NCBI GenBank assembly: GCA_947307015.1
Contig: CAMZHV010000001.1
Coordinates: forward strand, 12,846-76,845
From: an uncultured Prevotellaceae bacterium
Lineage (GTDB): Bacteria > Bacteroidota > Bacteroidia > Bacteroidales > Bacteroidaceae
Direction: 5' to 3'
DNA length: 64,000 nt
The notes beneath the pieces are model-generated. The model was not told the DNA's origin and searched no databases. It was given only the letters and a program-made list of their open reading frames with translations. Position 1 is the stretch's first letter; each line of letters starts with the position of its first letter. The position numbers and the translations under genes are program-made. This document shows, one piece after another, positions 11,913-48,228 of this stretch.

Positions 11913-13802
11913 ATGGCAGATAGTTTAAACATCCAAGAGCTGGAGCAGGTGGTGGTCCGCTTCTCCGGCGACAGCGGCGACGGTATGCAGCTCGCCGGCA
12001 ACATCTTCTCCACGGTATCGGCTACCGTGGGCAACAGTATCTCCACGTTCCCCGACTATCCCGCCGACATCCGCGCTCCGCAAGGCTCGCTGACGGGTGT
12101 GAGCGGCTTTCAGGTGCACATCGGTGCTGCTCAGGTCTATACGCCTGGTGACCAGTGCGACGTCTTAGTGGCAATGAACGCAGCAGCCTTCAAGACACAA
12201 CTGCGTTATGCCAAGCCTAACGCCACGATCATCATCGACACCGACTCCTTCACGAAGAAGGACCTCGACAAGGCGGAATTCAAGACCGACGACTACATCG
12301 CTGAGATGGGCGTTGACCCCGACCGTGTCATCGCCTGTCCGCTGACCACGATGGTCAAAGACGCGCTGGCCGACACGGGTATGGATGCGAAGAGCGTGCT
12401 CAAGTGCCGCAATATGTTTGCGCTGGGCCTCGTCTGCTGGCTGTTCAGCCGCGACCTGAACGTGGCTTTCAACTTCCTGCGTGAGAAGTTCGCCAAGAAG
12501 CCGGCCATCGCCGAGGCTAACATCAAGGTGATTCAGGCAGGTTACGACTACGGTCACAATACGCACTCCAGCGCGATGAACGTCTATCGCATTGAGTCGA
12601 AGGAAAAGAAGCCCGGACGCTACATGGATATCACAGGCAACAAGGCCACAGCTTACGGCTTCATCGCTGCTGCCGAGAAGGCTGGCTTGCAGCTCTACCT
12701 CGGCTCCTATCCCATCACCCCTGCTACGGATGTGCTTCATGAACTTTCGAAGCATAAGAGCCTAGGTGTGAAGACGGTGCAGTGTGAGGACGAAATTGCA
12801 GGTTGCTCATCGGCTGTTGGTGCAAGCTTTGCCGGTGCATTGGCTGTGACCTCCACCTCCGGTCCTGGCATCTGCCTCAAAAGCGAGGCAATGAACCTGG
12901 CGGTCATCATGGAATTGCCACTCGTCGTCCTCGACGTACAGCGCGGAGGTCCTGCTACGGGTCTCCCCACGAAATCGGAACAGACGGACCTCTTGCAGGT
13001 ACTCTTCGGTCGCAACGGTGAGAGCCCGATGCCTGTGATGGCAGCTCTCTCACCAACGGACTGCTTCGCAGCGGCTTACGACGCTTCGAAGATGGCGTTG
13101 GAGCACATGACGCCCGTCGTGCTCTTGACCGATGCTTTCATCGCCAACGGCAGCGGCGCCTTCAAACTGCCTGACCTCGAAAAGATGCCTGCCATCAAGC
13201 CGCCGTATGTGCCCGAGGAGCTGCGCGGCAGTTGGACGCCTTATATGCGTGCTGAAAACGGCGCCCGCTACTGGGCTGTACCGGGGCGCGAGGGCTTTGA
13301 ACATATTCTCGGCGGACTGGAGAAGGACAACAAGACAGGTGCCATCAGTACCAATCCCGAGAACCACGACCTCATGACGCGTCTGCGTGCTGAGAAGGTG
13401 GCCAAGATCCAAGTCCCCGACCTCGAAGTGGAAGGTGATACCGCAGACGCCGACCTGCTGATAGTAGGCTTCGGTAGCACCTACGGACATCTGCACGCGG
13501 CAATGGATGAACTGAGAGGAGTGGCGGCCCCCCATTCGGCCCCCAGGGGGGCTACGGATGTTAATCCCTATAAAGTGGCTCTTGCACAATTCCGTTATCT
13601 GAATCCCTTACCCGCAAATACAGCAGAGGTACTGAAGCGTTACCCAAAAGTAGTTGTCGCCGAACAGAACATGGGACAATTGGCTTCATATCTTCGCATG
13701 AAAATTGATAATTTTGTTCCCAAACAGTTTAACCAAGTCAAGGGCCAACCTTTCGTTGTTAGCGAATTGGTAGAAGCATTCAAGCAAATATTGGATGAAT
13801 AA
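11913..13802 (+). CDS. korA: 2-oxoglutarate/2-oxoacid:ferredoxin oxidoreductase subunit alpha (fused gamma-alpha type)
   Basis: 629 aa. FSGDSGDGMQLAG..., PITPATD and QRGGPATGLPTKSEQTDL motifs. Carries an in-frame module (VAAPHSAPRGATDV) at 13526-13560. Confidence 0.9.
   Translation: MADSLNIQELEQVVVRFSGDSGDGMQLAGNIFSTVSATVGNSISTFPDYPADIRAPQGSLTGVSGFQVHIGAAQVYTPGDQCDVLVAMNAAAFKTQLRYAKPNATIIIDTDSFTKKDLDKAEFKTDDYIAEMGVDPDRVIACPLTTMVKDALADTGMDAKSVLKCRNMFALGLVCWLFSRDLNVAFNFLREKFAKKPAIAEANIKVIQAGYDYGHNTHSSAMNVYRIESKEKKPGRYMDITGNKATAYGFIAAAEKAGLQLYLGSYPITPATDVLHELSKHKSLGVKTVQCEDEIAGCSSAVGASFAGALAVTSTSGPGICLKSEAMNLAVIMELPLVVLDVQRGGPATGLPTKSEQTDLLQVLFGRNGESPMPVMAALSPTDCFAAAYDASKMALEHMTPVVLLTDAFIANGSGAFKLPDLEKMPAIKPPYVPEELRGSWTPYMRAENGARYWAVPGREGFEHILGGLEKDNKTGAISTNPENHDLMTRLRAEKVAKIQVPDLEVEGDTADADLLIVGFGSTYGHLHAAMDELRGVAAPHSAPRGATDVNPYKVALAQFRYLNPLPANTAEVLKRYPKVVVAEQNMGQLASYLRMKIDNFVPKQFNQVKGQPFVVSELVEAFKQILDE
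13526..13560 (+). repeat. Type-B GC module, left end (GGCCCCCCATTC + GGCCCCCAGGGGGGCT + ACGGATG), in frame in korA
   Basis: Differs at 3 of 35 positions from the corresponding end of the 90-nt element in thrC (28400-28434, reverse complement). Confidence 0.85.
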
Positions 13803-14170
13803 TGAGCTACGACTACCAGACTGCCGATTCTGCTCTATATCACATATTGCGTGAAAATGCTGCATACAATAGGAATCACCCCACAGAAGCAGAAGCACTG
13901 CTTTGGGAATTCTTGGGTGCGGATGGACTGGGAGTTACATTCAAAAGCCAACATATTATAGGTGATTATATCGCGGATTTTGTATGTTTGACTTCCAAGT
14001 TAATCGTTGAACTCGACGGTGGATACCATCAACTCGCACAACAGCAAATAAGTGATGAGCAACGTACAGAATGGTTAGAAAGCAGAGGCTTCAAAATCAT
14101 CCGATTCACAAACGAAGAACTATTTCACAACGTTGACAAAGTATTAGATACGATAAAAGATAATCTATAA
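13802..14170 (+). CDS. DUF559 / Vsr-like endonuclease-domain protein
   Basis: 122 aa. DFVCLTSKLIVELDGGYHQ...EQRTEWLESRGFKIIRFTNEEL matches the DUF559 (PD-(D/E)xK, Vsr-like) pattern. TAATG overlaps with the korA stop and with the korB start. Confidence 0.85.
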   Translation: MSYDYQTADSALYHILRENAAYNRNHPTEAEALLWEFLGADGLGVTFKSQHIIGDYIADFVCLTSKLIVELDGGYHQLAQQQISDEQRTEWLESRGFKIIRFTNEELFHNVDKVLDTIKDNL

Positions 14171-15231
14171 TGAATACTAATTCCAATGCAAACGTAGCCC
14201 CCTCGGGGGCCGAAGGGGGGGCCGCTACTTGGATGGCTTCCGATTATAAGAAAGGGCAGCCGAGGTGGTGCCCGGGATGCGGAGATCATTTCTTCCTGGC
14301 ATCTTTGCATAAGGCGCTGGCCGAAATTGGCGTAGCGCCCAAGGACATCGCCGTCATCAGCGGTATCGGTTGCAGCAGTCGTCTGCCCCATTACATGGCC
14401 ACCTACGGCATGAACACCATTCACGGTCGTGCTGCCGCCATCGCCACTGGTGCGAAGGTGACGAATCCCAAGCTGGATGTGTGGCAGATCAGCGGCGACG
14501 GCGACGGCTTAGCCATTGGCGGTAACCATTTCATCCACGCCAACCGCCGAAACATCGACCTGAACATAATCCTGCTGAACAACCGTATCTACGGTTTGAC
14601 GAAGGGTCAGTACTCGCCCACCAGCCCTCGTGGCTTCGTCTCGAAGTCCAGCCCTTATGGCACTGTCGAGGATCCCTTCCGCCCCGCTGAGCTATGCTTT
14701 GGTGCCCGTGGTCATTTCTTCGCTCGTGCCGTGGCCACTGATGCTCCTGGTACCATCGAGGTACTGAAGGCTGCCCATGACCATAAGGGTGCCAGTGTCA
14801 CCGAGATCCTTCAAAATTGCGTCATCTTCAACAATGGTACGCACGATAGCGTCTATGACAAGGACGGCCGCAAGAAGAACGCCATCTACGTGCGTCACGG
14901 CGAGAAGCTCGTCTTTGGCGAGAACAACGAATTCGGTCTCGTGCAGCAGGGCTTTGGTCTCAAGGTCGTGGAGATTGGCAAGGACGGCTACACGCTCGAC
15001 GACGTTCTTGTCCACGATGCACACTGCGAGGACAACACGCTGCAGCTGAAGCTCGCCCTCATGGGCGATGGCGACGGTTTCCCCATCGCCCTCGGCGTCA
15101 TTCGCGATGTGGCAGCGCCCACCTATGATGATGCTGTCACCGCACAGATCGCAGAGGTCAGCGCCGCGAAGAAGTATCACAACTTCGCCGAGCTCCTCGA
15201 AACAAACGATATTTGGGAAGTTCGCGAGTAA
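14170..15231 (+). CDS. korB: 2-oxoglutarate/2-oxoacid:ferredoxin oxidoreductase subunit beta (TPP-binding)
   Basis: 353 aa. WCPGCGDH and GDGDGLAIGGNH motifs. An alternative in-frame ATG at 14233 lies just after the type-B module. Confidence 0.9.
   Translation: MNTNSNANVAPSGAEGGAATWMASDYKKGQPRWCPGCGDHFFLASLHKALAEIGVAPKDIAVISGIGCSSRLPHYMATYGMNTIHGRAAAIATGAKVTNPKLDVWQISGDGDGLAIGGNHFIHANRRNIDLNIILLNNRIYGLTKGQYSPTSPRGFVSKSSPYGTVEDPFRPAELCFGARGHFFARAVATDAPGTIEVLKAAHDHKGASVTEILQNCVIFNNGTHDSVYDKDGRKKNAIYVRHGEKLVFGENNEFGLVQQGFGLKVVEIGKDGYTLDDVLVHDAHCEDNTLQLKLALMGDGDGFPIALGVIRDVAAPTYDDAVTAQIAEVSAAKKYHNFAELLETNDIWEVRE
14194..14223 (-). repeat. Type-B GC module, right end (GTAGCCCCCTCGGGGGC + CGAA + GGGGGGGCC)
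   Basis: Inverted partner of 13526-13560. Resembles the other end of the thrC element (28345-28373). Read as VAPSGAEGGAA if korB starts at 14170. Confidence 0.8.
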
Positions 15232-15238
15232 TTTATTC

Positions 15239-15366
15239 ACAACGAATTTCACGAATTAAACGAATTCAGGTTGCGCAGTGTAAGAATGATCTTCGAATAG
15301 GTGTCATTCGTTATCAATCTTTGCTACACATAGAAAGTAATTCGTAAAATTCGTGTAATTCGTTGT
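15239..15366. repeat. AT-rich inverted-repeat element; each arm is three ACGAATT-type repeats
   Basis: Left arm acaacgaatttcacgaattaaacgaattc (15239-15267). The right arm (15337-15366) is its reverse complement, 26/30 by hand alignment. 69-nt spacer. Confidence 0.7.
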
Positions 15367-15385
15367 TCTAAAAGAAATATTTGAA

Positions 15386-21157: not shown

Positions 21158-21916
21158 TCAAGAGGCTTCTGCTTTCAGCAAGGCTTCAGCGATGATGAGG
21201 TCGAAAGGTGTGGTGATCTTGATATTCTCACGGTTGCCATCGACGAGGGTGACGGGATGCCCCAGGGCTTCGACGACAGAGGCATCGTCGGTAAAGGTGT
21301 CGCAGTAGGGCTGCTTGTAGGCTTGGAGAAGGAGGGAGTGCGTGAAGACCTGTGGGGTTTGGACAAGGCGCAGCTTCGAGCGGTCAATGGTAGCGGACAC
21401 CCCCTCCCCAGTGTGAGAGGGAAGAAGTTGGCGCACGGTCTCGACGACAGGGACGACGGGGACGACGGCGGCGTGCTCACGGGCAGCTTCGAAACAACGA
21501 CGGATAACATCAACGGAGACGAAGGGGCGCACGCCGTCGTGGACAGCAACCAAACTCCCCTCCCTCACGGGGGCGGGGGAGAGGCTTCTTAACCCGTTCT
21601 TTACACTATGAAACCGTGTTTCGCCGCCATCGACGATAGTATGTGGCAGGGTGAAAGCGTGCTGACGGCAGAGGTCGCGCCAAAAGTCCTGCTGGTCATG
21701 TGGCAGGACAAGCACGATGCGTATGCCAGAAATAGCACGCTCGAAAGCTTCAAGCGTGTGCATCAGCACGGGACGTCCCCCGATAGGAAGGAACTGCTTA
21801 GGCAGGTCGCTGCCCATCCGCAGTCCTTTGCCTCCGGCAACGATGATGACAGACTCTCCCCCCGCCCTCCCTATTAGGGAGGGAGTAGATTGTTTTGCTA
21901 TTGGATTATCTTCCAT
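21158..21916 (-). CDS. ispD: 2-C-methyl-D-erythritol 4-phosphate cytidylyltransferase
   Basis: 252 aa. [43 protein letters not shown] and LVQTPQVF motifs. The N-terminal 22 aa are encoded by repeat spacer + arm. Confidence 0.9.
21555..21585 (-). repeat. Short type-A variant in frame in ispD
   Basis: Reverse complement GCCTCTCCCCCGCCCCCGTGAGGGAGGGGAG. Translated as [10 protein letters not shown]. Confidence 0.6.
21852..21885 (+). repeat. Type-A module (left arm of the DJ-1|ispD doublet), translated in ispD
   Basis: GACTCTCCCCCCGCCCTCCCTATTAGGGAGGGAG. 33/34 identical to the reverse complement of 21951-21984. Confidence 0.9.
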
Positions 21917-21950
21917 AAAAAGATAATAATCAGTTCTTGTTAGGTAACCG

Positions 21951-21984
21951 CTCCCTCCCTAACAGGGAGGGCGGGGGGAGAGTC
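21951..21984 (-). repeat. Type-A module (right arm of the DJ-1|ispD doublet)
   Basis: CTCCCTCCCTAACAGGGAGGGCGGGGGGAGAGTC. Ends 5 nt from the DJ-1 stop codon. Confidence 0.9.
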
Positions 21985-24526: not shown

Positions 24527-24555
24527 CACCCACCCCTGCCTCTACCTTTCGGGAG
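24527..24555 (+). repeat. Degenerate C-tail module (left arm of the nadK|ABC doublet)
   Basis: CACCCACCCCTGCCTCTACCTTTCGGGAG. Fills the gap between the nadK stop and ATG 24556. Confidence 0.5.
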
Positions 24556-26340
24556 ATGTGTTATTACCATAATAATATGACAGGAAAAGGAAACAATCAG
24601 CCAAAGGATACTGCTCCCCTCCCCGCAAAAGATAAGCGGGGGGGTGGGTCTGCTTATTTGACACGACAGCTGATAGCCTGGTTCTGGCATATTTTCATGC
24701 AGGTGAAGCTGCAGTCGTTCATCAATGCGATGAGCGGCATTATCCGTGTGGCGCTTGATTTTGCTTTCATCTGGGCCACGAAGGTGACCATCGATATAGC
24801 CACAGGCAATTTCTCGCCTTCATCCTTTATCCCCAAACCCTCCACCTTATTCAGTGCTGGCGTTCTGCTCATCAGCATCATGGTGCTGCAGATGGCTTTG
24901 GGCTATCTAAGGCGCTGGATTGCTGCACTTTTGGGCGTTGAGGCGCAGAACAGGATGCAACGCCACATCTTCGAGCATCTGTTGCGCAGCGAATGGCACG
25001 GTAAAGAGCGCCGTCACAGCGGCGATGTCCTCAACCGTTTGATCAGCGACAGCACCACGGTTGTCACCGTGGTCACGGATACGGTACCGCAGGCGTTGGC
25101 CGTGCTGGTGCGCCTCGTGTGTGCATTCTTTTTTCTTTACTCCATGGATGCCATGCTGGCGGTGGGCGTTATTGTCATCCTGCCGCTCTTCATCCTGCTC
25201 AGCCGCCTCTATGTCCATCGGATGCGTGCCATCACGCGTGAAGTGCGGAAGACCGACAGCCGCGTGCAGGCCATCTTGCAGGAGAGCGTGCAGCACCGCC
25301 TCGTACTGAAGACCTTGGAGCGTGTGCCGCTCCTTGTCCAAGCGCTGTCTGATTTGCAAGCCACACTACGCAGTCAAGTGCGCCACCGTACGCTCTTCTC
25401 CTCCACTTCCAACCTGGTGGTTAACATCGGTTTCGGTGCAGCCTATCTCTTCACCTTCCTCTGGAGTGTGAACCGTCTTTCTGATGGCACCATCACCTTT
25501 GGCATGATGACCGCCTTCATCCAGTTGTGTGGTCAGATACAAGGCCCCTTCCGCGAACTGACACGTTTCATCCCGGCCATCATCAGCAGCTTTACGTCAG
25601 CCGAACGTCTCATGGAGCTCGAAGAAACGCCCCTCGAGGAAGACGGTGAGCCTATTCGTTTCGAACGCGGTGCAGGCATACGTCTCACTGATGTCACTTT
25701 CGCCTATGACGACTACAGCCGTACCATCCTCAGCCATGCCACCTACGATTTTGCGCCCGGCTCCACAACAGCCGTCCTGGGCGAGACGGGGGCGGGCAAG
25801 ACAACACTGCTCAGGCTGGTGCTCGCCCTGCTAAAACCGCAACAGGGGACGGTGGAGATCTACGAACCTGCCACAGGGCGCGCCGTACAGGTCAGCGCCC
25901 GCACACGTTGCAACCTCGTCTATGTGCCACAAGGCAATTCACTCTTCAGTGGCACCTTGCGCTGGAACCTGCAGATGGGTAAGCCCGAGGCGACGGACGA
26001 AGAGCTGCATGAGGCGTTGCGCTTGGCCTGTGCCGATTTCGTGCAGACGTTGCCCGATGGCCTCGACACGCGCATCGGCGAGGGTGGCGCAGGTCTCTCT
26101 GAAGGACAGGCGCAGCGCATAGCCATCGCCCGTGCTCTCCTGCGTCAAGGTTCGGTGTTACTGCTCGACGAAGCCACCAGTGCCCTCGACCAGCAAACAG
26201 AGAAGCAACTGATAGAGAACCTTGTGGAACACCATAGCCACCTCTCCGTGAAGCCTACGCTCATTTTCATCACTCACCGCCCTGCCATCGTGAACTACTG
26301 CTCGCAGGTCATCACGTTTAAGAAATGTTCAGCTTCCTGA
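24556..26340 (+). CDS. ABC exporter, fused permease/ATPase (MsbA-like)
   Basis: 594 aa. Six-TM ABC_membrane region, Walker A GETGAGKTT, LSEGQAQRIAIARAL, Walker B LLLDEATSALD. The N-terminus contains a repeat arm, so the start is uncertain. Confidence 0.85.
   Translation: MCYYHNNMTGKGNNQPKDTAPLPAKDKRGGGSAYLTRQLIAWFWHIFMQVKLQSFINAMSGIIRVALDFAFIWATKVTIDIATGNFSPSSFIPKPSTLFSAGVLLISIMVLQMALGYLRRWIAALLGVEAQNRMQRHIFEHLLRSEWHGKERRHSGDVLNRLISDSTTVVTVVTDTVPQALAVLVRLVCAFFFLYSMDAMLAVGVIVILPLFILLSRLYVHRMRAITREVRKTDSRVQAILQESVQHRLVLKTLERVPLLVQALSDLQATLRSQVRHRTLFSSTSNLVVNIGFGAAYLFTFLWSVNRLSDGTITFGMMTAFIQLCGQIQGPFRELTRFIPAIISSFTSAERLMELEETPLEEDGEPIRFERGAGIRLTDVTFAYDDYSRTILSHATYDFAPGSTTAVLGETGAGKTTLLRLVLALLKPQQGTVEIYEPATGRAVQVSARTRCNLVYVPQGNSLFSGTLRWNLQMGKPEATDEELHEALRLACADFVQTLPDGLDTRIGEGGAGLSEGQAQRIAIARALLRQGSVLLLDEATSALDQQTEKQLIENLVEHHSHLSVKPTLIFITHRPAIVNYCSQVITFKKCSAS
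24614..24650 (-). repeat. C-tail module variant (right arm of the nadK|ABC doublet), in frame
   Basis: CTCCCCTCCCCGCAAAAGATAAGCGGGGGGGTGGGTC. Translated as APLPAKDKRGGGSA. Confidence 0.6.
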
Positions 26341-27342: not shown

Positions 27343-28799
27343 TGCTGGAGGAGGAAAGCTTTGAAGTCGGCAAAATCCTTGCTCATGGCGACCGACTTCT
27401 TCTCGCCGCGCATGAAAGCCTGCAGCTTTTCGGGGATGGGAAGATCGATGCCGAGGATGCGGTCTACGGTGTCCTTGAATTTGGCGGGATGAGCGGTCTC
27501 AAGGAAGACGCCGACTTCGCCGTCTTGCAGCTGCTCTTTCAAGGCGCGATAACCGCACGCGCCGTGAGGATCAAGGATATAACCCGTGCGAGCATAACAA
27601 TCACGCATTGTCTCGGCAATCTGGTCGTCGGTGTAGGTGGCGCCGGAGATAAGGGGCCTCTCCCCCAACCCCTCCCCCGAGAGGGAGGGGAGTGGCTGTG
27701 CATAGCCTCTTTTACTTAACACTTCCATGACATCCTCACGACTGTAGAGGTCGAGGATGCGGGCGAAATTTGAGGGATCACCGACATCCATTGCATTGGC
27801 AATGGTCTGTTTCGAGGCTTTCGGCGTATACACACCTGTCTGGAGGTAGTTGTAGAACACGTCGTTGGCGTTGTTCGCCGCAATGAAACGTTTCACGGGC
27901 AGCCCCATGACGTGGCCGAACAGTGCCGAACAGATATTGCCGAAATTGCCGGAGGGGACGCAGATGACACAATCGGCTGCCCCACCGCCAACCCCTCTTC
28001 TCGTCAGGGAGGGGATAAGTTGCGCGTAAGCATAGAAATAATAAAACGCCTGCGGCAGGAAGCGGGCCACGTTGATGCTGTTGGCCGAGGTGAGGCGCAT
28101 GTGGGTATTCAGCTCCTGATCCATAAACGCCGACTTCACCAGTGCTTGGCAGTCATCGAAGACGCCATCGACCTCAATGGCCGTGATGTTTTGGCCGAGC
28201 GTCGTGAACTGACACTCCTGAATGGGCGACACCTTACCCTTCGGATAGAGCACATAAACATGTATACCCTCCACGCCGAGGAAGCCGTTGGCCACAGCCG
28301 AACCAGTGTCGCCGGAAGTGGCTACGAGTACATTAACCATGGAAGCCCCCCCTACTGCCCCCGAGGGGGCTTCTATTGTTTTGCGATTAGAGGACTTTAC
28401 ATCCGTAGCCCCCTCGGGGGCTGAATGGGGGGCCAACATATACTGAAGCAGGCGTGCCATAAATCTCGCACCCACATCTTTAAAAGCCAGCGTGGGGCCG
28501 TGGAAGAGCTCGAGGGCATAGATATTGTCCTCGACTTTCACGACAGGACAGTCGAAGGAGAGGGTGTCATAGACGATACGACGGAGGGCATCGGCTTCGA
28601 CATCTTCGCCGAAGAAGGCATCAGCGACGCGATAGGCCACCTCCTGGAATGTGAGGCCTGCCATTTCGTCCCAGAACGATTCAGGCAGTTGCTTGATGAC
28701 TTCGGGCATATACAGGCCGCGATCTTCGGCAAGGCCGCGGACGACAGCATCACGCAAAGTAGCGCGGGCAGCGGTATGGTTGGTGGAGTAGTAGAGCAT
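27339..28799 (-). CDS. thrC: Threonine synthase
   Basis: Start moved to MLYYSTNH. FKDVGARFMARLL, ATSGDTGSAVANGF and VPSGNFGN motifs. Three in-frame repeat insertions. Confidence 0.93.
   Translation of the reverse strand: MLYYSTNHTAARATLRDAVVRGLAEDRGLYMPEVIKQLPESFWDEMAGLTFQEVAYRVADAFFGEDVEADALRRIVYDTLSFDCPVVKVEDNIYALELFHGPTLAFKDVGARFMARLLQYMLAPHSAPEGATDVKSSNRKTIEAPSGAVGGASMVNVLVATSGDTGSAVANGFLGVEGIHVYVLYPKGKVSPIQECQFTTLGQNITAIEVDGVFDDCQALVKSAFMDQELNTHMRLTSANSINVARFLPQAFYYFYAYAQLIPSLTRRGVGGGAADCVICVPSGNFGNICSALFGHVMGLPVKRFIAANNANDVFYNYLQTGVYTPKASKQTIANAMDVGDPSNFARILDLYSREDVMEVLSKRGYAQPLPSLSGEGLGERPLISGATYTDDQIAETMRDCYARTGYILDPHGACGYRALKEQLQDGEVGVFLETAHPAKFKDTVDRILGIDLPIPEKLQAFMRGEKKSVAMSKDFADFKAFLLQQ
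27656..27692 (+). repeat. C-tail + hairpin module variant in frame in thrC
   Basis: GCCTCTCCCCCAACCCCTCCCCCGAGAGGGAGGGGAG. Translated as PLPSLSGEGLGERP. Confidence 0.65.
27979..28015 (+). repeat. C-tail + hairpin module variant in frame in thrC
   Basis: GCCCCACCGCCAACCCCTCTTCTCGTCAGGGAGGGGA. Translated as PSLTRRGVGGGA. Confidence 0.6.
28345..28434. mobile_element. 90-nt type-B doublet (REPIN/MITE-like), in frame in thrC
   Basis: Two inverted type-B ends (28345-28373 and 28400-28434) separated by 26 nt. 30 codons (PHSAPEGATDVKSSNRKTIEAPSGAVGGA) inserted between LQYMLA and MVNVLVATSGDTG. Confidence 0.8.
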
Positions 28800-28811: not shown

Positions 28812-28844
28812 CCACCCCAACCTTCCCTGTGAGGGAGGGGGTGG
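28812..28844 (+). repeat. Type-A variant (arm of the apgM-like|thrC doublet)
   Basis: CCACCCCAACCTTCCCTGTGAGGGAGGGGGTGG. Lies 12 nt upstream of the thrC ATG. Confidence 0.7.
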
Positions 28845-28861
28845 AATGATTTGTATAATGG

Positions 28862-30172
28862 TTATTGATTATCTAATGTATCTACTCCCTCCCTCACAGG
28901 GAGGGTAAGGGGTGGGTCTGTCATAAACAACTTAATGAATTCATCGCCTTCGATGAGACCATAGGCGCCTTCGCGGGCAGCATCCTCGTCGAAGGTCTGC
29001 ACACTATCTGGCTCTATGCCGGGGTAGTAGATGGCAAAGGGGATGGGCTCGGCGGTGTGAGTGCGTAGCTCGCAGGGCGTGGGATGGTCGGGTAAAAGAG
29101 CAATGGCGAGGTCATCCGTCATTTCGAACGCATGAAGGATAGGCTGAATGAGCCGATGGTCGAGGTCTTCGATGGTCTGGAGCTTGAGGGGGACTGAACC
29201 ATCGTGACCAGCCTCGTCGCTGGCTTCGACGTGGAGATAGACGAAGTCATCACCGCTGCGAAGGGCCTCGATGGCAGCCTGTGCCTTACCCTCGAAGTTA
29301 GTGTCATAGAGACCTGTAGCACCAGGGACGTTGATGACGCGCAACCCGGCATAATGTCCGATGCCGCGGATGAGGTCTACGGCCGTGATCACGGAGCCAC
29401 GACGAATCTGCGGGAAGCGTTCGGTGAGCGGCACCATCTGCGGACGATAGCCGCCGCCCCATGGCCAGATGCTCGAAGCCATATCTTTACCCTCGCGCGC
29501 GCGTTCTTTATTTAATTCATGCAAAGGCAGAAGTTCTTGGGAACGGCGAATGAGGTCGCATAGCAGGTCGGCGGTCTCAGCGGGGGACAGGACCTCTCTT
29601 TGCTTCCCCTCAAAGGGGAGGGTGGAATCTTCAGCGCAGGTATCTGCCGAGGGGACCTTGTCGCGCCATGTCTGAAGGGGCACATCGTGTGGCGGTGTAC
29701 ATTTAAGGTGCTTGTTGCCGCCTTTGATGACCAACAGGTGACGGTACTGCACGCCCGTATAGAAATGTACGCGGTCGTTGGCTAAGTGTTCGTTGAGGTA
29801 TCGGATGAGGACGTCGCCTTCCTCCGTTTCGAGGCGTCCGCAGGAGTGGTTCTTGATGATGTCACCCTCGATGCAAACGAGGTTACAGCGTAGGGCAAGG
29901 TCACCTTCTTCCAGTTCCACGCCTATGCTGGCGGCTTCCAGCGGTCCACGACCCTCGTAAACGACGTGTTGGTCGTAGCCCATGATGCTGCTGTTGGCCA
30001 CTTCACTACCCGGATGAAAACCATCGGGAATGGTCTTCAACAATCCGCAACGACCATTACGCGCCAACCAGTCCATGGCGGGCGTGTCGGCGTATTGAAG
30101 GAGTGTCTTGTCACCGAGTGAAGGCACGTGCCAGTCGGCCATGCCGTCGCCAAGGATGATTAGATGTTTCAT
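28862..30172 (-). CDS. Cofactor-independent phosphoglycerate mutase-like (apgM family) protein; probable non-canonical homoserine kinase of the thr operon
   Basis: 436 aa. MKHLIILGDGMAD... metalloenzyme-superfamily N-terminus. Sits between thrA and thrC. The C-terminus runs into a repeat arm. Confidence 0.8.
   Translation of the reverse strand: MKHLIILGDGMADWHVPSLGDKTLLQYADTPAMDWLARNGRCGLLKTIPDGFHPGSEVANSSIMGYDQHVVYEGRGPLEAASIGVELEEGDLALRCNLVCIEGDIIKNHSCGRLETEEGDVLIRYLNEHLANDRVHFYTGVQYRHLLVIKGGNKHLKCTPPHDVPLQTWRDKVPSADTCAEDSTLPFEGKQREVLSPAETADLLCDLIRRSQELLPLHELNKERAREGKDMASSIWPWGGGYRPQMVPLTERFPQIRRGSVITAVDLIRGIGHYAGLRVINVPGATGLYDTNFEGKAQAAIEALRSGDDFVYLHVEASDEAGHDGSVPLKLQTIEDLDHRLIQPILHAFEMTDDLAIALLPDHPTPCELRTHTAEPIPFAIYYPGIEPDSVQTFDEDAAREGAYGLIEGDEFIKLFMTDPPLTLPVREGVDTLDNQ
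28885..28918 (-). repeat. Type-A module (arm of the apgM-like|thrC doublet), forms the C-terminus of the apgM-like protein
   Basis: Reverse complement GACCCACCCCTTACCCTCCCTGTGAGGGAGGGAG. Translated as DPPLTLPVREGV. Confidence 0.85.
29592..29624 (+). repeat. Hairpin module variant in frame in the apgM-like gene
   Basis: CCTCTCTTTGCTTCCCCTCAAAGGGGAGGGTGG. Translated as STLPFEGKQRE. Confidence 0.5.
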
Positions 30173-32700: not shown

Positions 32701-34656
32701 TCAAGAGGCAGCGGCCTCCTGCGGCGTCGAAAGCGCGATTTCCTCTTCCTCCATCATCTGATGGAGCACGCGGCCCACGACGCTGTCGGGGATGTCTGGG
32801 AAATGGAAGTCGAGGAATGATGTCGGCTTCTGCTCGGCAACGAAGGCGAGGATGCGCTGGCGCACGAAAGCGTCGTCAATGCGCGGCAGCGGGCTCCGCT
32901 CGGTGCAGTTGTCGCAATGTCCGCAGTCTTGAGCATCCTTCTCGCCGAAGTAACGCAGGAGGTAGCGGCTGTGGCATTCCGAGGTCTCGAGGTAGCCGAT
33001 CATCGTCTGAATGCGTTGTTCGAGTTCGCGCTTGCGGTCGCGATAAACGGATGGCGGCAGCACGATGTCGTCACTCTCGACGCGCCGCTGTCTGAAGGTG
33101 ATATAGGGGATGAACTTACGCGGCACGAACTGCAGGATATGCCGGCGGCTGAGCTCCACGAGCTGCTCGCTGACCTCTGCCTCACCTACGCTTAGGGCGT
33201 GGGCTATCTCGCCTTCGTCGATGTAGGCATACTCGCTGAAGATGCCTGTACACGTCCGCAGCAGGTGCTGCAACACGCGCTCCATCAGGGGCGGAAGATG
33301 ATAGGTGTAGAGCTCTTCGCGGTGGCAGCTCATCATCACGCGGCTGTGGTTTTCCTCCGCATCGGCCCATTCGATATAGCCGGCTCGCGACAGCAGCTGC
33401 AAGGCGTTGTAAGCCCGCACGGGAAAATGGTGGAACGTGCGACAGAACTCCTCCAGATTGAACTCTCGCGTGATGCCAAAGCCGTCGCCCATGGCTAACT
33501 GCAGGAAATAGCAGGCATCCTCGTAGACCTTCCTGACGTAATCCTCTGGCGGGTAGGTGTCTTCGATGCGGCGGCGTAGCACAGCGATGGAGCGGCTGTC
33601 GTAGAGAAGCACGGCATGAGCCTGCTGGCCATCGCGGCCGGCACGCCCTGCCTCTTGGAAATACGCTTCGGGGGAGTCGGGGACGTCGGTGTGGACGATG
33701 AGCCGCACGTCGGCCTTGTCAATACCCATGCCAAAGGCGTTTGTGGCCACCATCACGCGGATCTCGCCGTGCTGCCACGCCGCCGCCCGCTCGTTCTTCT
33801 CGCGATTCGTCAGGGCGGCATGGTAGTGAGTTGCCGTGATGCCCTGCGACACGAGCCACGAGGCCAGTTCGCGCGTAGCCTGACGGCTGCGGGTATAGAC
33901 GATGGCAGAACCGGGCACGCGGATAAGCAATTCCTGCAGCTCCTGTTCACGCGACTGTCGGATGCGGCGGACGGAATAGATCAGGTTCTTGCGTTCGAAG
34001 CTCATCCGCTTGACATTAGGCTCACGGAAGCCTAATTGCCGTTGGATATCTTCGACGACGGGCGGTGTGGCGGTGGCCGTCAGGGCAAGCACTGGCGCGT
34101 CGGGCAGCAGCTTGCGGATTTGGGAAATCTCGGTGTAAGACGGGCGGAAGTCGTAACCCCATTGCGAGATGCAGTGGGCCTCGTCCACCGTGATGAAGCT
34201 TACCTGCATGTGTCTGAGCTTGGCCTGAAAAAGCTCCGAGGACAGGCGCTCGGGCGAGACATAGAGGAATTTGTAATTGCCAAAAATGCAGTTCTCCAAC
34301 GCCGTAATCACCTCGTCGCGCGTCATGCCCGTATAGACGGCAGTGGCCTTGATGCCTTTCTCGCGGAGGTGCATCACCTGATCCTTCATCAAGGAGATCA
34401 GCGGGCTGATGACCAGGCACAACCCCTCCTGCGCCAATGCCGGCACCTGAAAGGTGATGCTCTTGCCGCCGCCCGTAGGCATAAGCCCTAAGGTATCCCT
34501 TCCCGCCCCAATACTCTCAATGATGTCCTGCTGAATACCACGGAAGGAAGAGAAACCGAAATAATGGTGTAAGATAGAACAATAAACAGACTCTCCCCCC
34601 GCCCTCCCTATCAGGGAGGGAGCAGTCACATGCGCCAGTTGCTCCTTTCCGTTCAT
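32701..34656 (-). CDS. recQ: RecQ-family ATP-dependent DNA helicase
   Basis: 651 aa. FRGIQQDII (Q motif), MPTGGGKS, DEAHCISQWGYDFRP, ATNAFGMGIDK and QEAGRAGRDG motifs. The N-terminal 23 aa are encoded by spacer + repeat arm. Confidence 0.92.
   Translation of the reverse strand: MNGKEQLAHVTAPSLIGRAGGESVYCSILHHYFGFSSFRGIQQDIIESIGAGRDTLGLMPTGGGKSITFQVPALAQEGLCLVISPLISLMKDQVMHLREKGIKATAVYTGMTRDEVITALENCIFGNYKFLYVSPERLSSELFQAKLRHMQVSFITVDEAHCISQWGYDFRPSYTEISQIRKLLPDAPVLALTATATPPVVEDIQRQLGFREPNVKRMSFERKNLIYSVRRIRQSREQELQELLIRVPGSAIVYTRSRQATRELASWLVSQGITATHYHAALTNREKNERAAAWQHGEIRVMVATNAFGMGIDKADVRLIVHTDVPDSPEAYFQEAGRAGRDGQQAHAVLLYDSRSIAVLRRRIEDTYPPEDYVRKVYEDACYFLQLAMGDGFGITREFNLEEFCRTFHHFPVRAYNALQLLSRAGYIEWADAEENHSRVMMSCHREELYTYHLPPLMERVLQHLLRTCTGIFSEYAYIDEGEIAHALSVGEAEVSEQLVELSRRHILQFVPRKFIPYITFRQRRVESDDIVLPPSVYRDRKRELEQRIQTMIGYLETSECHSRYLLRYFGEKDAQDCGHCDNCTERSPLPRIDDAFVRQRILAFVAEQKPTSFLDFHFPDIPDSVVGRVLHQMMEEEEIALSTPQEAAAS
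34589..34629 (+). repeat. Type-A module (arm of the recJ|recQ doublet), translated in recQ
   Basis: GACTCTCCCCCCGCCCTCCCTATCAGGGAGGGAGCAGTCAC. 39/41 complementary to 34689-34729. Confidence 0.9.
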
Positions 34657-34688
34657 TAACTATCAAAAAATGAAAACAAATCTTGAAG

Positions 34689-34729
34689 GTGACTGCTCCC
34701 TCCCTTTTAGGGAGGGCGGGGGGAGAGTC
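34689..34729 (-). repeat. Type-A module (arm of the recJ|recQ doublet)
   Basis: GTGACTGCTCCCTCCCTTTTAGGGAGGGCGGGGGGAGAGTC. Ends 6 nt from the recJ stop. Confidence 0.9.
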
Positions 34730-36515: not shown

Positions 36516-36702
36516 ACACAAAATATCGCAAAACTGTGCAAAAACTAATGCTAATAAACGCTAAACACCCTCATTTTACCTATTTTCAATGAAAATAGTG
36601 TCCCTTCAGACACGTTGCAGCTAAATTAATCCACGATTCACACTTTGATTACCTACTCTTTTCAGGTTCCAGGAAACTCTTGAACTCTTAGTAAAATTGT
36701 TT

Positions 36703-36764
36703 GCAGCATCGTGAATCTGCAATTGACGATTCACGATGCTGCAATTGACGGTTCGCGATGCTGC
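36703..36764. repeat. 15-bp perfect inverted repeat (GCAGCATCGTGAATC / GATTCACGATGCTGC) overlapping a 22-nt tandem duplication
   Basis: aattgacgattcacgatgctgc (36721-36742) is followed by aattgacggttcgcgatgctgc (36743-36764). Confidence 0.75.
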
Positions 36765-39067: not shown

Positions 39068-39071
39068 GCCG

Positions 39072-44885: not shown

Positions 44886-44893
44886 TATCTTTG
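44886..44893 (+). promoter_or_regulatory. Putative -7 box TATCTTTG for DUF4492-cydAB
   Basis: 74 nt upstream of ATG 44968. Confidence 0.45.
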
Positions 44894-44967
44894 TCCCGCA
44901 ATCGAATCACTCGAGCCCATTTCTAAACATCTTGACCTAACAAACCTACATTCCTAACCACCTGATA

Positions 44968-45237
44968 ATGTCCAAAGAAAGCTTTTGGCGCCGTGCCATC
45001 AACCTCTACTATGATGGTTTCCGACAGATGACGCTGGGTCGCACGCTCTGGCTCATCATCGGCATCAAGCTTTTCGTCATCTTTGTTATCCTCAAAATCT
45101 TCTTTTTCCCCGATTTCATCGGGCAAAATGCCGAAAAAGGCAAGGAAGCAGAGTTCGTGGCTGGGGAGTTGAGTAAAAGAACAGACCCACCTCCTGCCCT
45201 CCCTGTGAGGGAGGGTGATAATACCTGTCAAGAATAA
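44968..45237 (+). CDS. DUF4492-like small membrane protein preceding cydAB
   Basis: 89 aa. WRRAINLYYDGFRQMTLGRTLWLIIGIKLFVIF, position upstream of cydA. The C-terminal part is encoded by a repeat arm. Confidence 0.75.
   Translation: MSKESFWRRAINLYYDGFRQMTLGRTLWLIIGIKLFVIFVILKIFFFPDFIGQNAEKGKEAEFVAGELSKRTDPPPALPVREGDNTCQE
45184..45217 (+). repeat. Type-A module (left arm of the DUF4492|cydA doublet), translated
   Basis: GACCCACCTCCTGCCCTCCCTGTGAGGGAGGGTG. Translated as [11 protein letters not shown]. Confidence 0.85.
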
Positions 45238-45297
45238 TAAACTAATTAACAATTTAAAAGAATGACCCTAATAGCCTCCTTTACTCTAAACATTCAA

Positions 45298-45330
45298 CTC
45301 TCCCCATATAGGGGGAGCGGGGAGGGGGTC
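45298..45330 (-). repeat. C-tail module variant (right arm of the DUF4492|cydA doublet)
   Basis: CTCTCCCCATATAGGGGGAGCGGGGAGGGGGTC. Ends 10 nt before the cydA ATG. Confidence 0.6.
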
Positions 45331-45340
45331 TTTTAAACCT

Positions 45341-46900
45341 ATGAACCTTTTATCTATCGACCCTGCAGCCATCGACTGGGCGCGAGCGCAGTTTGCCCTC
45401 ACGGCCATCTATCACTGGCTCTTTGTCCCATTAACTTTGGGAGTTGGCCTCATCATGGCCATCATTGAAACAAAGTACTACCGCACAGGTGACGCGTTCT
45501 GGCGTCGTGCGGCACAATTCTGGCAGCGCCTCTTTGGCATCAACTTCGCCATGGGCGTAGCCACGGGCATCATCCTCGAGTTCGAGTTTGGCACTAACTG
45601 GTCCAACTACTCCTGGTTTGTCGGCGACATCTTCGGTGCGCCTTTAGCCATCGAGGGTATCGTGGCGTTCTTCATGGAATCGACCTTCGTGGCCGTTATG
45701 TATTTCGGTTGGGAGAAAGTGTCGCGAGGCTTCCACTTGGCTTCGACTTGGCTCACCTGGCTCGGCGCCACCATCTCGGCGTGGTGGATCCTCGTCGCCA
45801 ACTCATGGATGCAATATCCCGTGGGCTGCGAATTCAACCCCGACACCATGCGCAATGAGATGACTTCGTTCCTCGATGTGGCTCTCTCGCCCTTTGCCAT
45901 CGACAAGTTCTGCCACACCGTCATCTCATCTTGGATTGTCGGCGCCGTCTTCGTAGTGGCTGTTTCGGCATGGTACCTCCTCAAGAAACGCGAAGCCGAG
46001 CGCGCGCTGGCACTCAAGAGCTTACGCATCGGAGCCATCGTGGGACTCATCGCTGCTGTGCTGGCTGGTGCTACGGGCCACAAGTCGGCACAGACAGTCG
46101 CCGCCGTGCAACCCATGAAGCTCGCCGCCATGGAGGCGCTCTACGACGGCGGCAACGCTCAGGGACTCAAAATTATAGAAGGCATCGAGGTGCCCTACGC
46201 CCTCTCCTTCATGGCTACCAACGACTTCAACGGCTTCGTGCCCGGTATTAATGATATATTAAAAGGTTACACGCGCGAGGACGGCACAGTAGAACCGTCA
46301 GCTCAGGAGAAGCGCGAGCGTGGGCAGATGGCCATCACAGCCCTCGAGAACTACCGCCGCCTCAAGGCTGACGAGAAAACCTTTGCCGACCAGGATCCCG
46401 ACGGCTACATCACCGCTGCCAAGGAAAAACAGCTGGCTATACTCAAAGAGAATATGCCCTACTTCGGCTACGGGTATATCAAGGACGAGGCCGAATTGGT
46501 GCCTCCCGTGGCAGTCAATTTCTGGGCTTTCCGCGTGATGGTTGGCTTCGGCGGTCTCTTCATCCTCTTCTTCGCCTACATTCTTTTCCTCAACTGGCGC
46601 AAAAAAGATATTTCCTCGATGAAATGGCTACTTTGGCTCAGCATCATCCTCGTGCCCTGCGCATACATCTGCTCTGAAAGCGGCTGGCTCGTGGCAGAGT
46701 TTGGACGCCAGCCCTGGACGATACAAGATATGCTACCCGTCGCTGCCTCCGTCTCGGACATCGGTTCTGGCGCCGTCGCCACGACCTTCTGGCTTTTCCT
46801 CGCGCTCTTCACCACGATGCTTGCCGTGGAAATCAATATCATGTTGAAACAGATTAAAAAGGGAGATCCCCTCCTCACTCCCCCTCAAGGGGGAGAGTAG
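45341..46900 (+). CDS. cydA: Cytochrome bd ubiquinol oxidase subunit I
   Basis: 519 aa. ARAQFALTAIYHWLFVPLTLG and GRQPWTIQDMLP motifs. The last 11 codons are a repeat arm. Confidence 0.95.
   Translation: MNLLSIDPAAIDWARAQFALTAIYHWLFVPLTLGVGLIMAIIETKYYRTGDAFWRRAAQFWQRLFGINFAMGVATGIILEFEFGTNWSNYSWFVGDIFGAPLAIEGIVAFFMESTFVAVMYFGWEKVSRGFHLASTWLTWLGATISAWWILVANSWMQYPVGCEFNPDTMRNEMTSFLDVALSPFAIDKFCHTVISSWIVGAVFVVAVSAWYLLKKREAERALALKSLRIGAIVGLIAAVLAGATGHKSAQTVAAVQPMKLAAMEALYDGGNAQGLKIIEGIEVPYALSFMATNDFNGFVPGINDILKGYTREDGTVEPSAQEKRERGQMAITALENYRRLKADEKTFADQDPDGYITAAKEKQLAILKENMPYFGYGYIKDEAELVPPVAVNFWAFRVMVGFGGLFILFFAYILFLNWRKKDISSMKWLLWLSIILVPCAYICSESGWLVAEFGRQPWTIQDMLPVAASVSDIGSGAVATTFWLFLALFTTMLAVEINIMLKQIKKGDPLLTPPQGGE
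46865..46897 (+). repeat. C-tail module variant (left arm of the cydA|cydB doublet), forms the cydA C-terminus
   Basis: GATCCCCTCCTCACTCCCCCTCAAGGGGGAGAG. Translated as DPLLTPPQGGE, then stop. Confidence 0.65.
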
Positions 46901-46965
46901 TCACCTCTAAGAATCGATTCAAACTACTCATCTCTCATCTTTAATCTCTCATCTTTTCTCATATT

Positions 46966-48228
46966 ATGATTACTTTTAGTTCTCTCATAAGTCTATTACA
47001 AACCGCCCTTCCCATTGCGGGGGAGCAGGAAGGGTGGCTGTCTTATTCCTTTCTCCAACACTATTGGTGCTTCGTTGTCGCACTGCTCGGCGCCATCCTC
47101 GTGTTCCTGCTCTTCGTCCAGGGTGCCAACTCTGTAGCCGGCAGCCTTGGATACACAGAGGAGGGCCGTCGCCTCGTCTATAACTCCACGGGCCGCAAGT
47201 GGGAGTTCACCTTCACCACGCTCGTCACCTTTGGCGGTGCTTTCTTTGCATCATATCCCCTGTTCTACAGTACTTCATTCGGCAGTGCTTATTGGCTGTG
47301 GATGCTCATCTTGTTCACTTTCGTGGTTCAGGCGGTGAGCTACGAGTTCCAGAACAAACTTGGCAACTTCTTCGGCCCTAAACCCTTCCAGTTCTGCCTT
47401 ACCCTCAACGGCATCCTCGGCCCGCTACTCCTCGGCGGCGCCGTTGCCACTTTCTTCGAAGGTAGTAATTTTATTGTAGAAAAAGGAAACCTCATCACTG
47501 GGGCTGGGGGTGGGTCTCTCGTTATCTCCCACTGGGCCAACGCTTCTCACGGTCTTGACGCCCTACTCAACCCCTGGGTGCTTGTTTTCGGCTTTGCTGT
47601 CGTCTTCTTGGCTCGCACGTTAGGCATCCTCTACGTCATGAACAATGTCGATGACGAGGACATCCGCAGTCGTGGCAGTGTGCGTCTTATCGGCGCCGCC
47701 GTGCCCTTCGTCATCCTCTTCGTGGCCTACCTCGTACACTTGCTCCTTAAGGACGGCTATGCCTACGACCCCACCACCGGTGTTATCTTCATGGAGCCCT
47801 ATAAGTACCTGCACAACCTGCTCGACATGTGGTACCTCCTTATTATATTATTAACAGGTGTAGTCCTCGTGCTCTACGGCATCGCCATCGAAATCTTCGG
47901 TCGGTCAGATAAATTGTCAAATCGTAAATGGTTAAATAGTCAAATCAACAAGGGTATCTGGCCTGCTGGTATCGGTACCGTGCTTACCGTGCTCGCCCTG
48001 CTGCTTTGCTCCGCTTGGAACAACACCGCCTACTACCCCTCTACCGCTGACCTGCAGTCGTCGCTCACCATGCAAAACTCCTGCAGCAGCGAATTCACCC
48101 TACGCACCATGTTCTACGTCTCTCTCCTCGTCCCCTTCGTTCTGGCTTACATCATCTACTGCTGGCGAGCCATTGATGCTAAAAAGATCACCAAGGAGGA
48201 GATCATGGAAGGAGAGCATACGTATTGA
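46966..48228 (+). CDS. cydB: Cytochrome bd ubiquinol oxidase subunit II
   Basis: 420 aa. FLQHYWCFVVALLGAILVFLLFVQG is a typical CydB N-terminus. It is preceded by 24 codons from spacer + repeat arm that supply the only usable ATG. Confidence 0.9.
   Translation: MITFSSLISLLQTALPIAGEQEGWLSYSFLQHYWCFVVALLGAILVFLLFVQGANSVAGSLGYTEEGRRLVYNSTGRKWEFTFTTLVTFGGAFFASYPLFYSTSFGSAYWLWMLILFTFVVQAVSYEFQNKLGNFFGPKPFQFCLTLNGILGPLLLGGAVATFFEGSNFIVEKGNLITGAGGGSLVISHWANASHGLDALLNPWVLVFGFAVVFLARTLGILYVMNNVDDEDIRSRGSVRLIGAAVPFVILFVAYLVHLLLKDGYAYDPTTGVIFMEPYKYLHNLLDMWYLLIILLTGVVLVLYGIAIEIFGRSDKLSNRKWLNSQINKGIWPAGIGTVLTVLALLLCSAWNNTAYYPSTADLQSSLTMQNSCSSEFTLRTMFYVSLLVPFVLAYIIYCWRAIDAKKITKEEIMEGEHTY
47003..47037 (-). 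repeat. C-tail module variant (right arm of the cydA|cydB doublet), translated in cydB
   Basis: CCGCCCTTCCCATTGCGGGGGAGCAGGAAGGGTGG. Translated as ALPIAGEQEGW. Confidence 0.6.
47907..47945. repeat. AT-rich tandem NNNAAAT repeats in frame in cydB
   Basis: gtcaaat cgtaaat ggttaaat agtcaaat. Translated as DKLSNRKWLNSQI. Resembles the AAATCGTAAA motif upstream of pdxJ and the DJ-1 gene. Confidence 0.45.

Follow-up and report, generated by a model that had tools for sequence, protein, structure and literature searches.

The 64,000-nucleotide stretch analysed here (the window; contig CAMZHV010000001.1 of assembly GCA_947307015.1, from an uncultured Prevotellaceae bacterium) carries seven doublets of a short GC-rich repeat, each placed around the boundary between two genes. 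The repeat unit, or arm, consists of a C-rich tail and a GC hairpin, and in every doublet the two arms are inverted with their tails pointing outward. All seven doublets were located in the window sequence at the coordinates that an earlier note on this DNA had given, and the identities of the neighbouring genes are backed by Pfam in each case. Between the arms at korA/korB lies a DUF559 (Vsr-like) nuclease gene that the earlier note overlooked; it is likely the family-wide partner. Of the seven doublets, six have a junction form that is open reading frame (ORF)-less, and the kor locus is nuclease-bearing. The components are as follows, left and right arms being named in the direction of transcription.

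21852..21984, reverse strand: DJ-1/ispD junction doublet, 133 nt (from inverted-repeat scan, reading frames and RNA fold).
21951-21984, reverse strand: left arm of DJ-1/ispD, 5 nt past the DJ-1 stop.
21886-21950, reverse strand: centre of DJ-1/ispD, containing an ATG at 21916 and an 11-residue leader.
21852-21885, reverse strand: right arm of DJ-1/ispD, translated (11 residues) and fused to ispD at VIIVAGG.
34589..34729, reverse strand: recJ/recQ junction doublet, 141 nt, the repeat reaching 53 nt; the recJ stop is 6 nt outside the left arm.
ATG at 34656, reverse strand: start of the recJ/recQ leader MNGKEQLAHVTA; the right arm is translated (11 residues) and a later start codon is absent.
24527..24650, forward strand: nadK/ABC exporter doublet, degenerate; the nadK TAA adjoins the arm.
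Within 24527..24650, forward strand: nadK/ABC leader MTGKGNNQPKDTA, followed by the arm peptide PLPAKDKRGGGS.
24614-24650, forward strand: right arm of nadK/ABC, collapsed to tail-loop-tail.
28812..28918, reverse strand: apgM/thrC doublet, 107 nt; the left arm is read by apgM (DPPLTLPVREG), with the stop in the centre.
28799, reverse strand: thrC ATG, 12 nt outside the right arm of the apgM/thrC doublet.
45184..45330, forward strand: DUF4492/cydA doublet, arms of different subfamilies; the left arm is read by DUF4492 (11 residues).
45341, forward strand: cydA ATG, 10 nt past the right arm of the DUF4492/cydA doublet.
46865..47037, forward strand: cydA/cydB doublet; cydA terminates within the left arm (DPLLTPPQGGE, then stop).
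46966, forward strand: cydB start, with leader MITFSSLISLLQTA reading through the right arm of the cydA/cydB doublet.
13526..13560, forward strand: family-2 arm in the korA frame (AAPHSAPRGATDV); the korA stop is 243 nt downstream and the native A/K-G-H is replaced.
13802..14170, forward strand: DUF559 (Vsr-like) nuclease gene, 122 aa, 369 nt (Pfam).
14170..14223, forward strand: korB leader MNTNSNANV and the family-2 right arm (14194-14223, APSGAEGGA).
Three codons after the right arm at 14194-14223, forward strand: native-like korB ATG.

The doublets were confirmed to lie far beyond chance. The hairpin core CCCTCCCTNNNAGGGAGGG occurs 11 times in the window where 0.28 occurrences are expected, and a sequence-agnostic scan for a C-rich tail plus GC hairpin gave 12 matches compared with 0-2 in shuffles. 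In an unbiased inverted-repeat scan, no inverted repeats of the window were longer than the arms of recJ/recQ (53 nt, 87% complementary), of DJ-1/ispD (44 nt, 91%) and of the kor pair (37 nt, 89%), which took the first three ranks; the scan also recovered apgM/thrC (31 nt, 84%) and, weakly, the degenerate nadK/ABC pair (22 nt, 73%). Window arms measure 32-53 nt, and the identity of partners reaches up to 97% but falls as low as 65-79% in some doublets. GTAG stands at the hairpin foot of three of the four family-2 window arms, and family-1 arms are without it. Partner arms had been thought to be each other's closest relatives, a claim that fails at thr, cydA, cydB and abc, where the closest arm is a non-partner: the right arm of thr is nearest to the left arm of cydA, and the right arm of cydA to the left arm of cydB. 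The spacers are AT-rich as described (GC 0.20-0.36 compared with 0.54 for the window), but they are not unrelated between loci, having common inner extensions of ~15 nt and a leader. As a separate observation, the two arms directly flanking cydA (45298-45330 and 46865-46897), which belong to separate doublets, are of the same subfamily and 82% identical, and each resembles the other more than its own doublet partner.

A reading-frame check bore out that apgM, DUF4492 and cydA each enter an arm before reaching a stop codon, and korA also holds its arm in frame. Arm translation is obligatory for some of the downstream genes. It is so for ispD, recQ and cydB, where no in-frame start lies between the arm and the conserved motifs, and not for korB, the ABC exporter, thrC and cydA. 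The true ATG of both thrC and cydA is found 10-12 nt past the arm, and an alternative start is available just past it in korB (ATG) and in the ABC gene (TTG). Obligatory read-through is therefore limited to three downstream genes.

To place these loci in a wider frame, the 21-mer GACTCTCCCCCCGCCCTCCCT was used as a census probe and matched at least 111 stretches from metagenome-assembled genomes of rumen, horse and other gut Bacteroidaceae/Prevotellaceae. When neighbouring arms within 1.5 kb were paired with a relaxed arm pattern, 66 pairs among the matches listed were arranged tails-outward, and the other arrangements numbered 7, 4 and 4, or 15 altogether. Spacer lengths among the same matches had a sharp mode at 49 nt, a broad range of 36-124 nt and a cluster near 420 nt. 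The spacers have conserved inner ends (AGCAGAATGTTTTGA at one, TCAAAGGTAACTGCT at the other), which extends the inverted repeat to ~50 nt and leaves the centres only partly variable. Hairpin-loop variants mostly match between both arms of one copy.

Doublets of different length reside in different places. Among the matches listed, each of the 15 compact doublets (107-119 nt) had one long ORF running through it, and 34 of 41 longer doublets lay at gene boundaries (26 co-directional, 6 divergent, 2 convergent), the remaining 7 being in-gene. Altogether 22 of 57 classified doublets, ~40%, are read through by one ORF and so lie in frame in genes, and junction copies are also partly translated. The in-gene hosts include leuC, purL, polA, priA, feoB, topB and uxaA. 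Length was 2 mod 3 in 21 of 24 in-gene doublets, and one phase, DSPPALP[VI]REGA...(S/T)APSL[TI]GRAGGES, was used in 20 of 24; junction doublet lengths were without periodicity (15/14/13 over the three residues mod 3). The two recurrent peptides reported for the window thus reappear in other genomes, the 20 in-gene doublets using the DSPPALP.REG / PSL.GRAGGES phase. Centres of in-gene copies are found in both orientations. Just outside complete doublets, extra tail-only copies (GACTCTCCCCCC... or ...GGGGGGAGAGTC) were seen at seven census loci (L035, L030, L042, L006, L043, L089 and L078), which suggests nested insertion into or beside older relics.

The tight coupling to gene junctions proposed for the modules does not hold, since the compact form of the census is solely in-gene and the same modules also occur inside genes of the window:

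28345..28433, reverse strand: family-2 doublet, 89 nt, in the thrC frame (APHSAPEGATD-VKSSNRKTIE-APSGAVGGAS), missing or collapsed in orthologues.
27656..27697, reverse strand: solo arm in the thrC frame (QPLPSLSGEGLGERP), common to most close orthologues.
2043..2107, reverse strand: family-1 arm with a degenerate partner, 65 nt, in frame in a 1434-aa ORF.
21551..21592, reverse strand: decayed arm in ispD loop 2 (LLPSHTGEG).
Near 21395-21420, reverse strand: matching decayed arm in opposite orientation, in ispD loop 1 (PAPVREG).
15547-15619 and 15730-15798, forward strand: two variant arms in a SpoU/TrmH-type methylase gene, in frame, with an extra module between tail and hairpin.

The variant arms of the methylase gene bracket ~110 nt of native coding sequence. 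The module that separates their tail and hairpin is ~41 nt long with a small hairpin of its own (GGAAC...GTTCC); it was seen at window 15560-15601 and at two other loci (L034, L082), and this recurrence indicates that the arms are modular.

What links the remaining doublets to junctions is a cassette at their centre. We assembled 32 doublets at junctions of co-directional genes; six lie in the window and 26 in other genomes. In 24 of the 32 the stop codon of the upstream gene precedes the tail by 2-14 nt, and in 25 of them the centre provides an ATG and a leader of ~10 codons that runs through the right arm into the downstream gene. This leader keeps its sequence between host genes that are unrelated (MNTSSQIHSAPS..., MKTSSHNHSAPS..., MNKFSSAQIHTAPS..., MNESNQSKDTAPS...) and faces the downstream gene in all 25 junction copies that have one. 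Start codon and leader are thus parts of the element rather than of the junction, and the association with junctions arises because one form of the element carries its own stop region and start. Accordingly, the spacers are not junction-specific as had been supposed: stop region, ATG and leader are supplied by the element.

Long centres (~420-630 nt) encode a ~121-aa DUF559 protein homologous to that at window 13802-14170. In the arm-selected loci all eight DUF559 ORFs lay inside doublets, one of them half deleted (L087). DUF559 was the only ORF found between arms in the long centres of these loci, with no transposase or RAYT (REP-associated tyrosine transposase), the source genome outside the window not having been searched; long centres without DUF559 hold nested repeats. 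On both sides, as far as the ORF edges, junction doublets without the ORF agree with the full elements, and presence, absence and decay of the ORF were all encountered within the same scaffold. The association was also examined in reverse, starting from 80 metagenome loci chosen by DUF559 homology alone, 75 of which were testable. GC-rich tail-plus-hairpin arms of several families flanked the ORF in inverted orientation, ~10-90 nt away, at 51 of the 75 loci. Such arms were found in none of 25 scrambled controls (maximum score 11) and at none of 76 viral contigs with distant DUF559 relatives. Arm identity rises with nuclease identity (Spearman 0.66, 210 pairs), and each DUF559 clade has its own arm family.

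The full element has the order upstream stop, left arm, 10-90 nt, DUF559 gene, a stop that overlaps the leader ATG or lies close to it, the leader itself, translated right arm and host gene. We found this architecture at korA/korB (with three arm families), at leuA/leuC and upstream of argC and gmk, and in one contig (L050) the nuclease gene is present at several places. At kor a TAATG stop/start overlap joins the DUF559 gene both to korA (13798-13806) and to the korB leader (14166-14174), so that it looks like a seamlessly inserted cistron. At leuA/leuC, ~20 LeuC protein clusters (P0292, P0293, P0342 and others; L202 1201-2994) have been called as 597-aa DUF559-leader-arm-LeuC fusions because the nuclease ORF has no stop before the leader ATG; these may represent a real fusion or internal initiation. 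The element is absent from most LeuC homologues.

Pfam matched the nuclease to DUF559 at 9e-31 and 2e-33, the domain covering residues 15-121 of 121-122 aa. The best structural relatives in the PDB were 3hrl (3.5e-23) and 3r3p, the catalytic domain of homing endonuclease I-Bth0305I (4.9e-7), and the D..DF and E.DG..H residues are invariant in the alignment of nuclease homologues. NCBIfam offers merely the label "DUF559 domain-containing protein", with a score below the model cut-off. The protein is a nuclease domain alone, lacking an N-terminal DNA-binding domain (NUMOD or similar). The 21-mer had no match in 2.9 million viral contigs, and we regard the family as chromosomal and partly vertically inherited. 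A phage vehicle was considered and rejected, the family-1 arm being absent from these contigs and the viral DUF559 relatives being distant (<=46% identity) and never arm-flanked. A survey of programmed inversions found DUF559 proteins enriched among inversion targets (PMC9881135); although the point is not discussed there, this is independent evidence of DUF559 genes between inverted repeats. Neither a partnership of DUF559 with repeats nor palindromic elements lying in frame in Prevotella turned up in our literature searches.

Alignment of ThrC and IspD with orthologues identified the arms as insertions, their residues being non-native, in agreement with the earlier note. Among close ThrC homologues, lengths span 435 to 586 aa, the differences being inserts at four fixed sites, and lineages differ in the arm family that occupies the same site. 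Translated doublets are visible in these homologues, for example SPNPSPVREG...SPLPNRGGVGEG. IspD homologues range from 211 to 389 aa; element-free ones begin M-x-x-x-IIVAGG, and those with an element have leader-plus-arm extensions of several families. At element-free junctions DJ-1 and ispD overlap by ATGA (L114) or stand 24 nt apart (L116), and in the window 133 nt replace the native stop through codon 3. A native ispD start, suggested by the "ME" in common with the element-free L116, was ruled out by the conservation of the leader across unrelated host genes.

Orthologous loci also record the later history of the copies. The apgM/thrC doublet has diverged orthologous counterparts in two related species (L200, L201), in one of which (L201) the right arm is lost. 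The left kor arm occupies a korA loop 243 nt before the stop in the window lineage and in L120-L122, and in five other lineages (L123, L126, L137, L138, L141) it is located beside the DUF559 start, at the C-terminus of korA. An exact empty site of a young in-gene LeuC insertion, sought to define borders and target duplication, was not obtained; the nearest insert-free relatives are ~86% identical and have a relic present. The in-gene thrC doublet at L201 1800-1960 has collapsed by hairpin-to-hairpin deletion into a tail-stem-loop-stem-tail, and the right arm of nadK/ABC in the window (24614-24650) has the same shape.

Given this anatomy, this distribution, the insertion relative to orthologues and the association of nuclease and arms in both directions, we consider it probable that the doublets are copies of a selfish palindromic cassette family, combining a REPIN/RAYT-like organization with in-frame insertion like that of Rickettsia palindromic elements and having a homing-type nuclease as partner. 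The cassette comprises two inverted arms, each with an outer C-rich tail, a GC hairpin and a ~15-nt inner extension, around a variable centre. Its compact form, of ~113 nt, keeps the centre open and lies in frame in protein loops. The AT-rich centre of the junction form ends the upstream frame and supplies an ATG and a ~10-codon leader, which enters the downstream gene by way of the distal arm (PSLxGRAGGES) and replaces the native start. The full form is a junction form with a ~121-aa DUF559 gene added between the left arm and the leader, its stop overlapping or abutting the leader ATG.

The DUF559 nuclease would recognise its cognate arms and drive spread, for which two routes can be envisaged. 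The ORF may home between existing doublets, the ~50-nt arms serving as homology; or, at new sites, an element copy may serve to repair nuclease-induced breaks. Pointing to the second route are the absence of target duplications and the 19-48 nt of native sequence missing at occupied sites, although we know of no mechanism for such break-repair copying into new sites. ORF-less doublets would be non-autonomous or ORF-lost relatives of the nuclease form, and junction copies would persist as the downstream gene, having lost its own start, came to rely on that of the element. As a possible secondary effect, the predicted mRNA stems may be targets of RNase III or may restrict how much nuclease is expressed from read-through transcripts.

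Several points weigh against this interpretation. The partnership is read from sequence; mobility, nuclease activity and transcripts were not observed. At the threshold used, 24 of the 75 DUF559 loci were without arms, and the correlation between arm and nuclease identity may partly reflect shared descent. DUF559 may be a passenger homing into existing doublets, and to our knowledge a 120-aa PD-(D/E)XK nuclease has no way to insert at new, non-homologous sites. A direct repeat indicating target-site duplication was not found beside the 57 doublets, whose sole flank pattern is that a purine precedes GAC and a pyrimidine follows GTC, and the loss of native sequence relative to element-free alleles is unlike classical transposition. 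Two phases per arm are open, yet one dominates the in-gene copies. The arm pairs at korA, in the ispD loops and in the methylase gene bracket native coding DNA, which insertion of a unit does not explain.

The last of these points would be accommodated if independent REP-like single arms were moved by an unseen hairpin-specific transposase (RAYT/IS200-IS605 or other) and paired by insertion, with DUF559 as a passenger. True solo arms exist, doublets can mix arm subfamilies, and the GTAG at the hairpin foot of family-2 window arms would fit such a transposase. We nevertheless consider this unlikely. Compact doublets have common extensions, a partly conserved centre and one modal length, loop variants usually agree between partner arms, and the tails-outward arrangement prevails by 66 to 15 over all others. 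The long centres hold no transposase ORF, those without DUF559 being nested repeats, and every DUF559 clade is accompanied by an arm family of its own.

Pairing of the arms in operon mRNA could alternatively constitute a host regulatory device that loops out the stop/start region as an RNase III site or for coupling or insulation. The predicted stems are strong, with the start codon in the apical loop (DJ-1/ispD -94.5 kcal/mol, z -12.6; recJ/recQ -103.6, z -13.3), and junction doublets are kept at orthologous junctions of related species; Correia and ERIC elements act at the RNA level. Such a role appears quite unlikely, however, as the primary explanation. The same arms occur in frame in dozens of unrelated genes without any junction, orthologous junctions function without a doublet (L114, L116) or with one arm deleted (L201), and arms decay to the extent that partners are sometimes only 65-79% alike. 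The doublets match no Rfam family, and a selfish origin accounts for the distribution without host function.

An invertible DNA switch, in which recombination between arms flips the start-codon centre and turns the downstream gene on or off, is very improbable. It would suit a start codon flanked by 34-53-nt inverted repeats and the two centre orientations of in-gene copies, but the latter are unable to act as switches and 25 of 25 leaders face the downstream gene. These downstream genes are housekeeping genes (ispD, recQ, cydB, leuC), an adjacent recombinase gene was not found, and centres of 40-105 nt are very short for inversion. Native convergence, by which GC-rich, proline/glycine-rich linkers at termini and loops resemble each other in composition, has next to no plausibility: the peptides are of low complexity and sit at permissive loops and termini, but an identical 21-mer and near-identical 32-36-nt arms recur in unrelated genes of many genomes, at more than 100 loci, arms also stand in untranslated positions, close orthologues are without them, and counts are far above the shuffled expectation.

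Other candidates were set aside. Chance or composition was ruled out by the shuffles together with identical 21-mers in more than 100 loci. As to known RNA families, only a tRNA passes the Rfam gathering thresholds in the window. Integron attC sites were considered on account of the junction position, variable centres and arm-specific pairing, and were rejected in view of the syntenic housekeeping neighbours, translated arms and high-copy arm families. The window also contains repeats of other kinds. Two inverted arrays of a 7-nt unit (GGACAAT/GACAATG x4) at 54218-54312 have arms of 25-29 nt that are 97-100% complementary and 33-49 nt apart, and are unrelated to the tail-plus-hairpin family. 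The gap between korB and the SpoU-type methylase gene (15239-15366) holds a CGAATT-rich 28-nt inverted repeat, 89% complementary with its arms 72 nt apart. Near-perfect palindromes just past cydB (48787-48854; 33-nt arms, 2-nt centre) and at 36701-36744 (22-nt arms, no spacer) could be terminators or binding sites. A ~190-aa segment of RecQ (32701-34656), between the helicase C-terminal and zinc-binding domains, gave no Pfam match and contains no arm-derived sequence.

The likeness to REPINs as inverted REP pairs and to Rickettsia palindromic elements as in-frame residents, already pointed out for the window, stands as a structural comparison. REPIN-RAYT systems (PMC3116915, PMC3337134) likewise consist of short GC-rich hairpin units in inverted pairs with a short spacer, disperse many ORF-less doublets in carrier genomes and have a small nuclease-type gene flanked by cognate units, with one repeat family per gene clade; a chromosomal location and partly vertical inheritance are further points in common. 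The gene is different, being here a DUF559/Vsr-like PD-(D/E)XK nuclease and there an HUH Y1 transposase (Y1_Tnp). Furthermore, the units described here are not extragenic, junction copies carry a start codon and leader, and at some loci the nuclease gene recurs along a single contig (L050). A GTAG/GTGG conserved 5' of the palindrome belongs to the REPIN-RAYT pattern; in the window, GTAG at the hairpin foot occurs in three of the four family-2 arms and not in family-1 arms.

Rickettsia palindromic elements, reportedly described by Ogata and colleagues in 2000 and mentioned in PMC1779305, are also ~100-150-nt palindromic repeats in frame in housekeeping genes and absent from orthologues (here those of ThrC, IspD and LeuC), with one preferred phase and peptides in permissive loops. 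The likeness is one of structure; the two are not known to be related in sequence and belong to different phyla, and the present repeats are GC-rich in a 54% GC genome, with a nuclease gene and a stop/start junction form. Operon-transcribed MITEs (miniature inverted-repeat transposable elements), such as Correia/NEMIS of Neisseria and ERIC/IRU of enterobacteria, resemble our elements in size (~100-150 nt), in long terminal inverted repeats around a centre of variable length, and in co-transcription with neighbours, by which long RNA stems could form. Unlike MITEs, the elements here show no target-site duplication and have no known DDE-transposase parent, their long versions carry DUF559, they are translated in frame, and the stop/start cassette is element-borne.

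A further comparison is with Vsr-like (EDxHD) homing endonucleases of 'fractured genes' such as I-Bth0305I (PMC2677866, PMC3239194), to which the nuclease is related by fold family (3r3p match). Their free-standing genes come with hairpins, run into the downstream ORF and extend both neighbouring products by terminal residues (PMC2677866). Our elements share the location between coding regions, the sporadic occurrence among orthologous loci, the RNA hairpins that come with the gene, the overlap of the nuclease 3' end with the downstream ORF start and the extra residues at the upstream C-terminus and downstream N-terminus. In contrast, those endonucleases are mainly phage-borne, often associated with split inteins or introns, equipped with a separate DNA-binding domain, and without a dispersed population of ORF-less repeats; the present protein is a chromosomal nuclease domain of ~121 aa whose cognate arms are also abundant alone. 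The family lacks defining features of REPIN-RAYT systems, of MITEs and of free-standing Vsr-like homing endonucleases.

We propose, tentatively and with some doubt, that a minimal Vsr-like (DUF559) nuclease and its cognate arms may form a new class of mobile element, partners in the manner of RAYT and REPIN that spread into coding DNA. In its junction form the element would act as a movable cistron boundary of stop region, start codon and leader, making a downstream housekeeping gene element-dependent. In its compact form it would give hundreds of proteins of rumen bacteria of the Prevotella lineage a fixed pair of peptides. If the partnership of nuclease and arms is real, it would give a function to the large orphan family DUF559 and a second, unrelated enzyme class to long-lived intragenomic replicators of the REPIN/RAYT style. 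A small nuclease with probable hairpin or palindrome specificity would potentially be a useful laboratory tool. For annotation, the elements are a systematic hazard: starts are mis-called, DUF559-LeuC "fusion" proteins are reported, and protein diversity comes out too high at 90% clustering. They would also show how a selfish element can reside in an essential operon without introns or inteins, by means of a stop/restart cassette and an in-frame arm, and they explain much of the protein length variation among orthologues of abundant rumen and gut bacteria.

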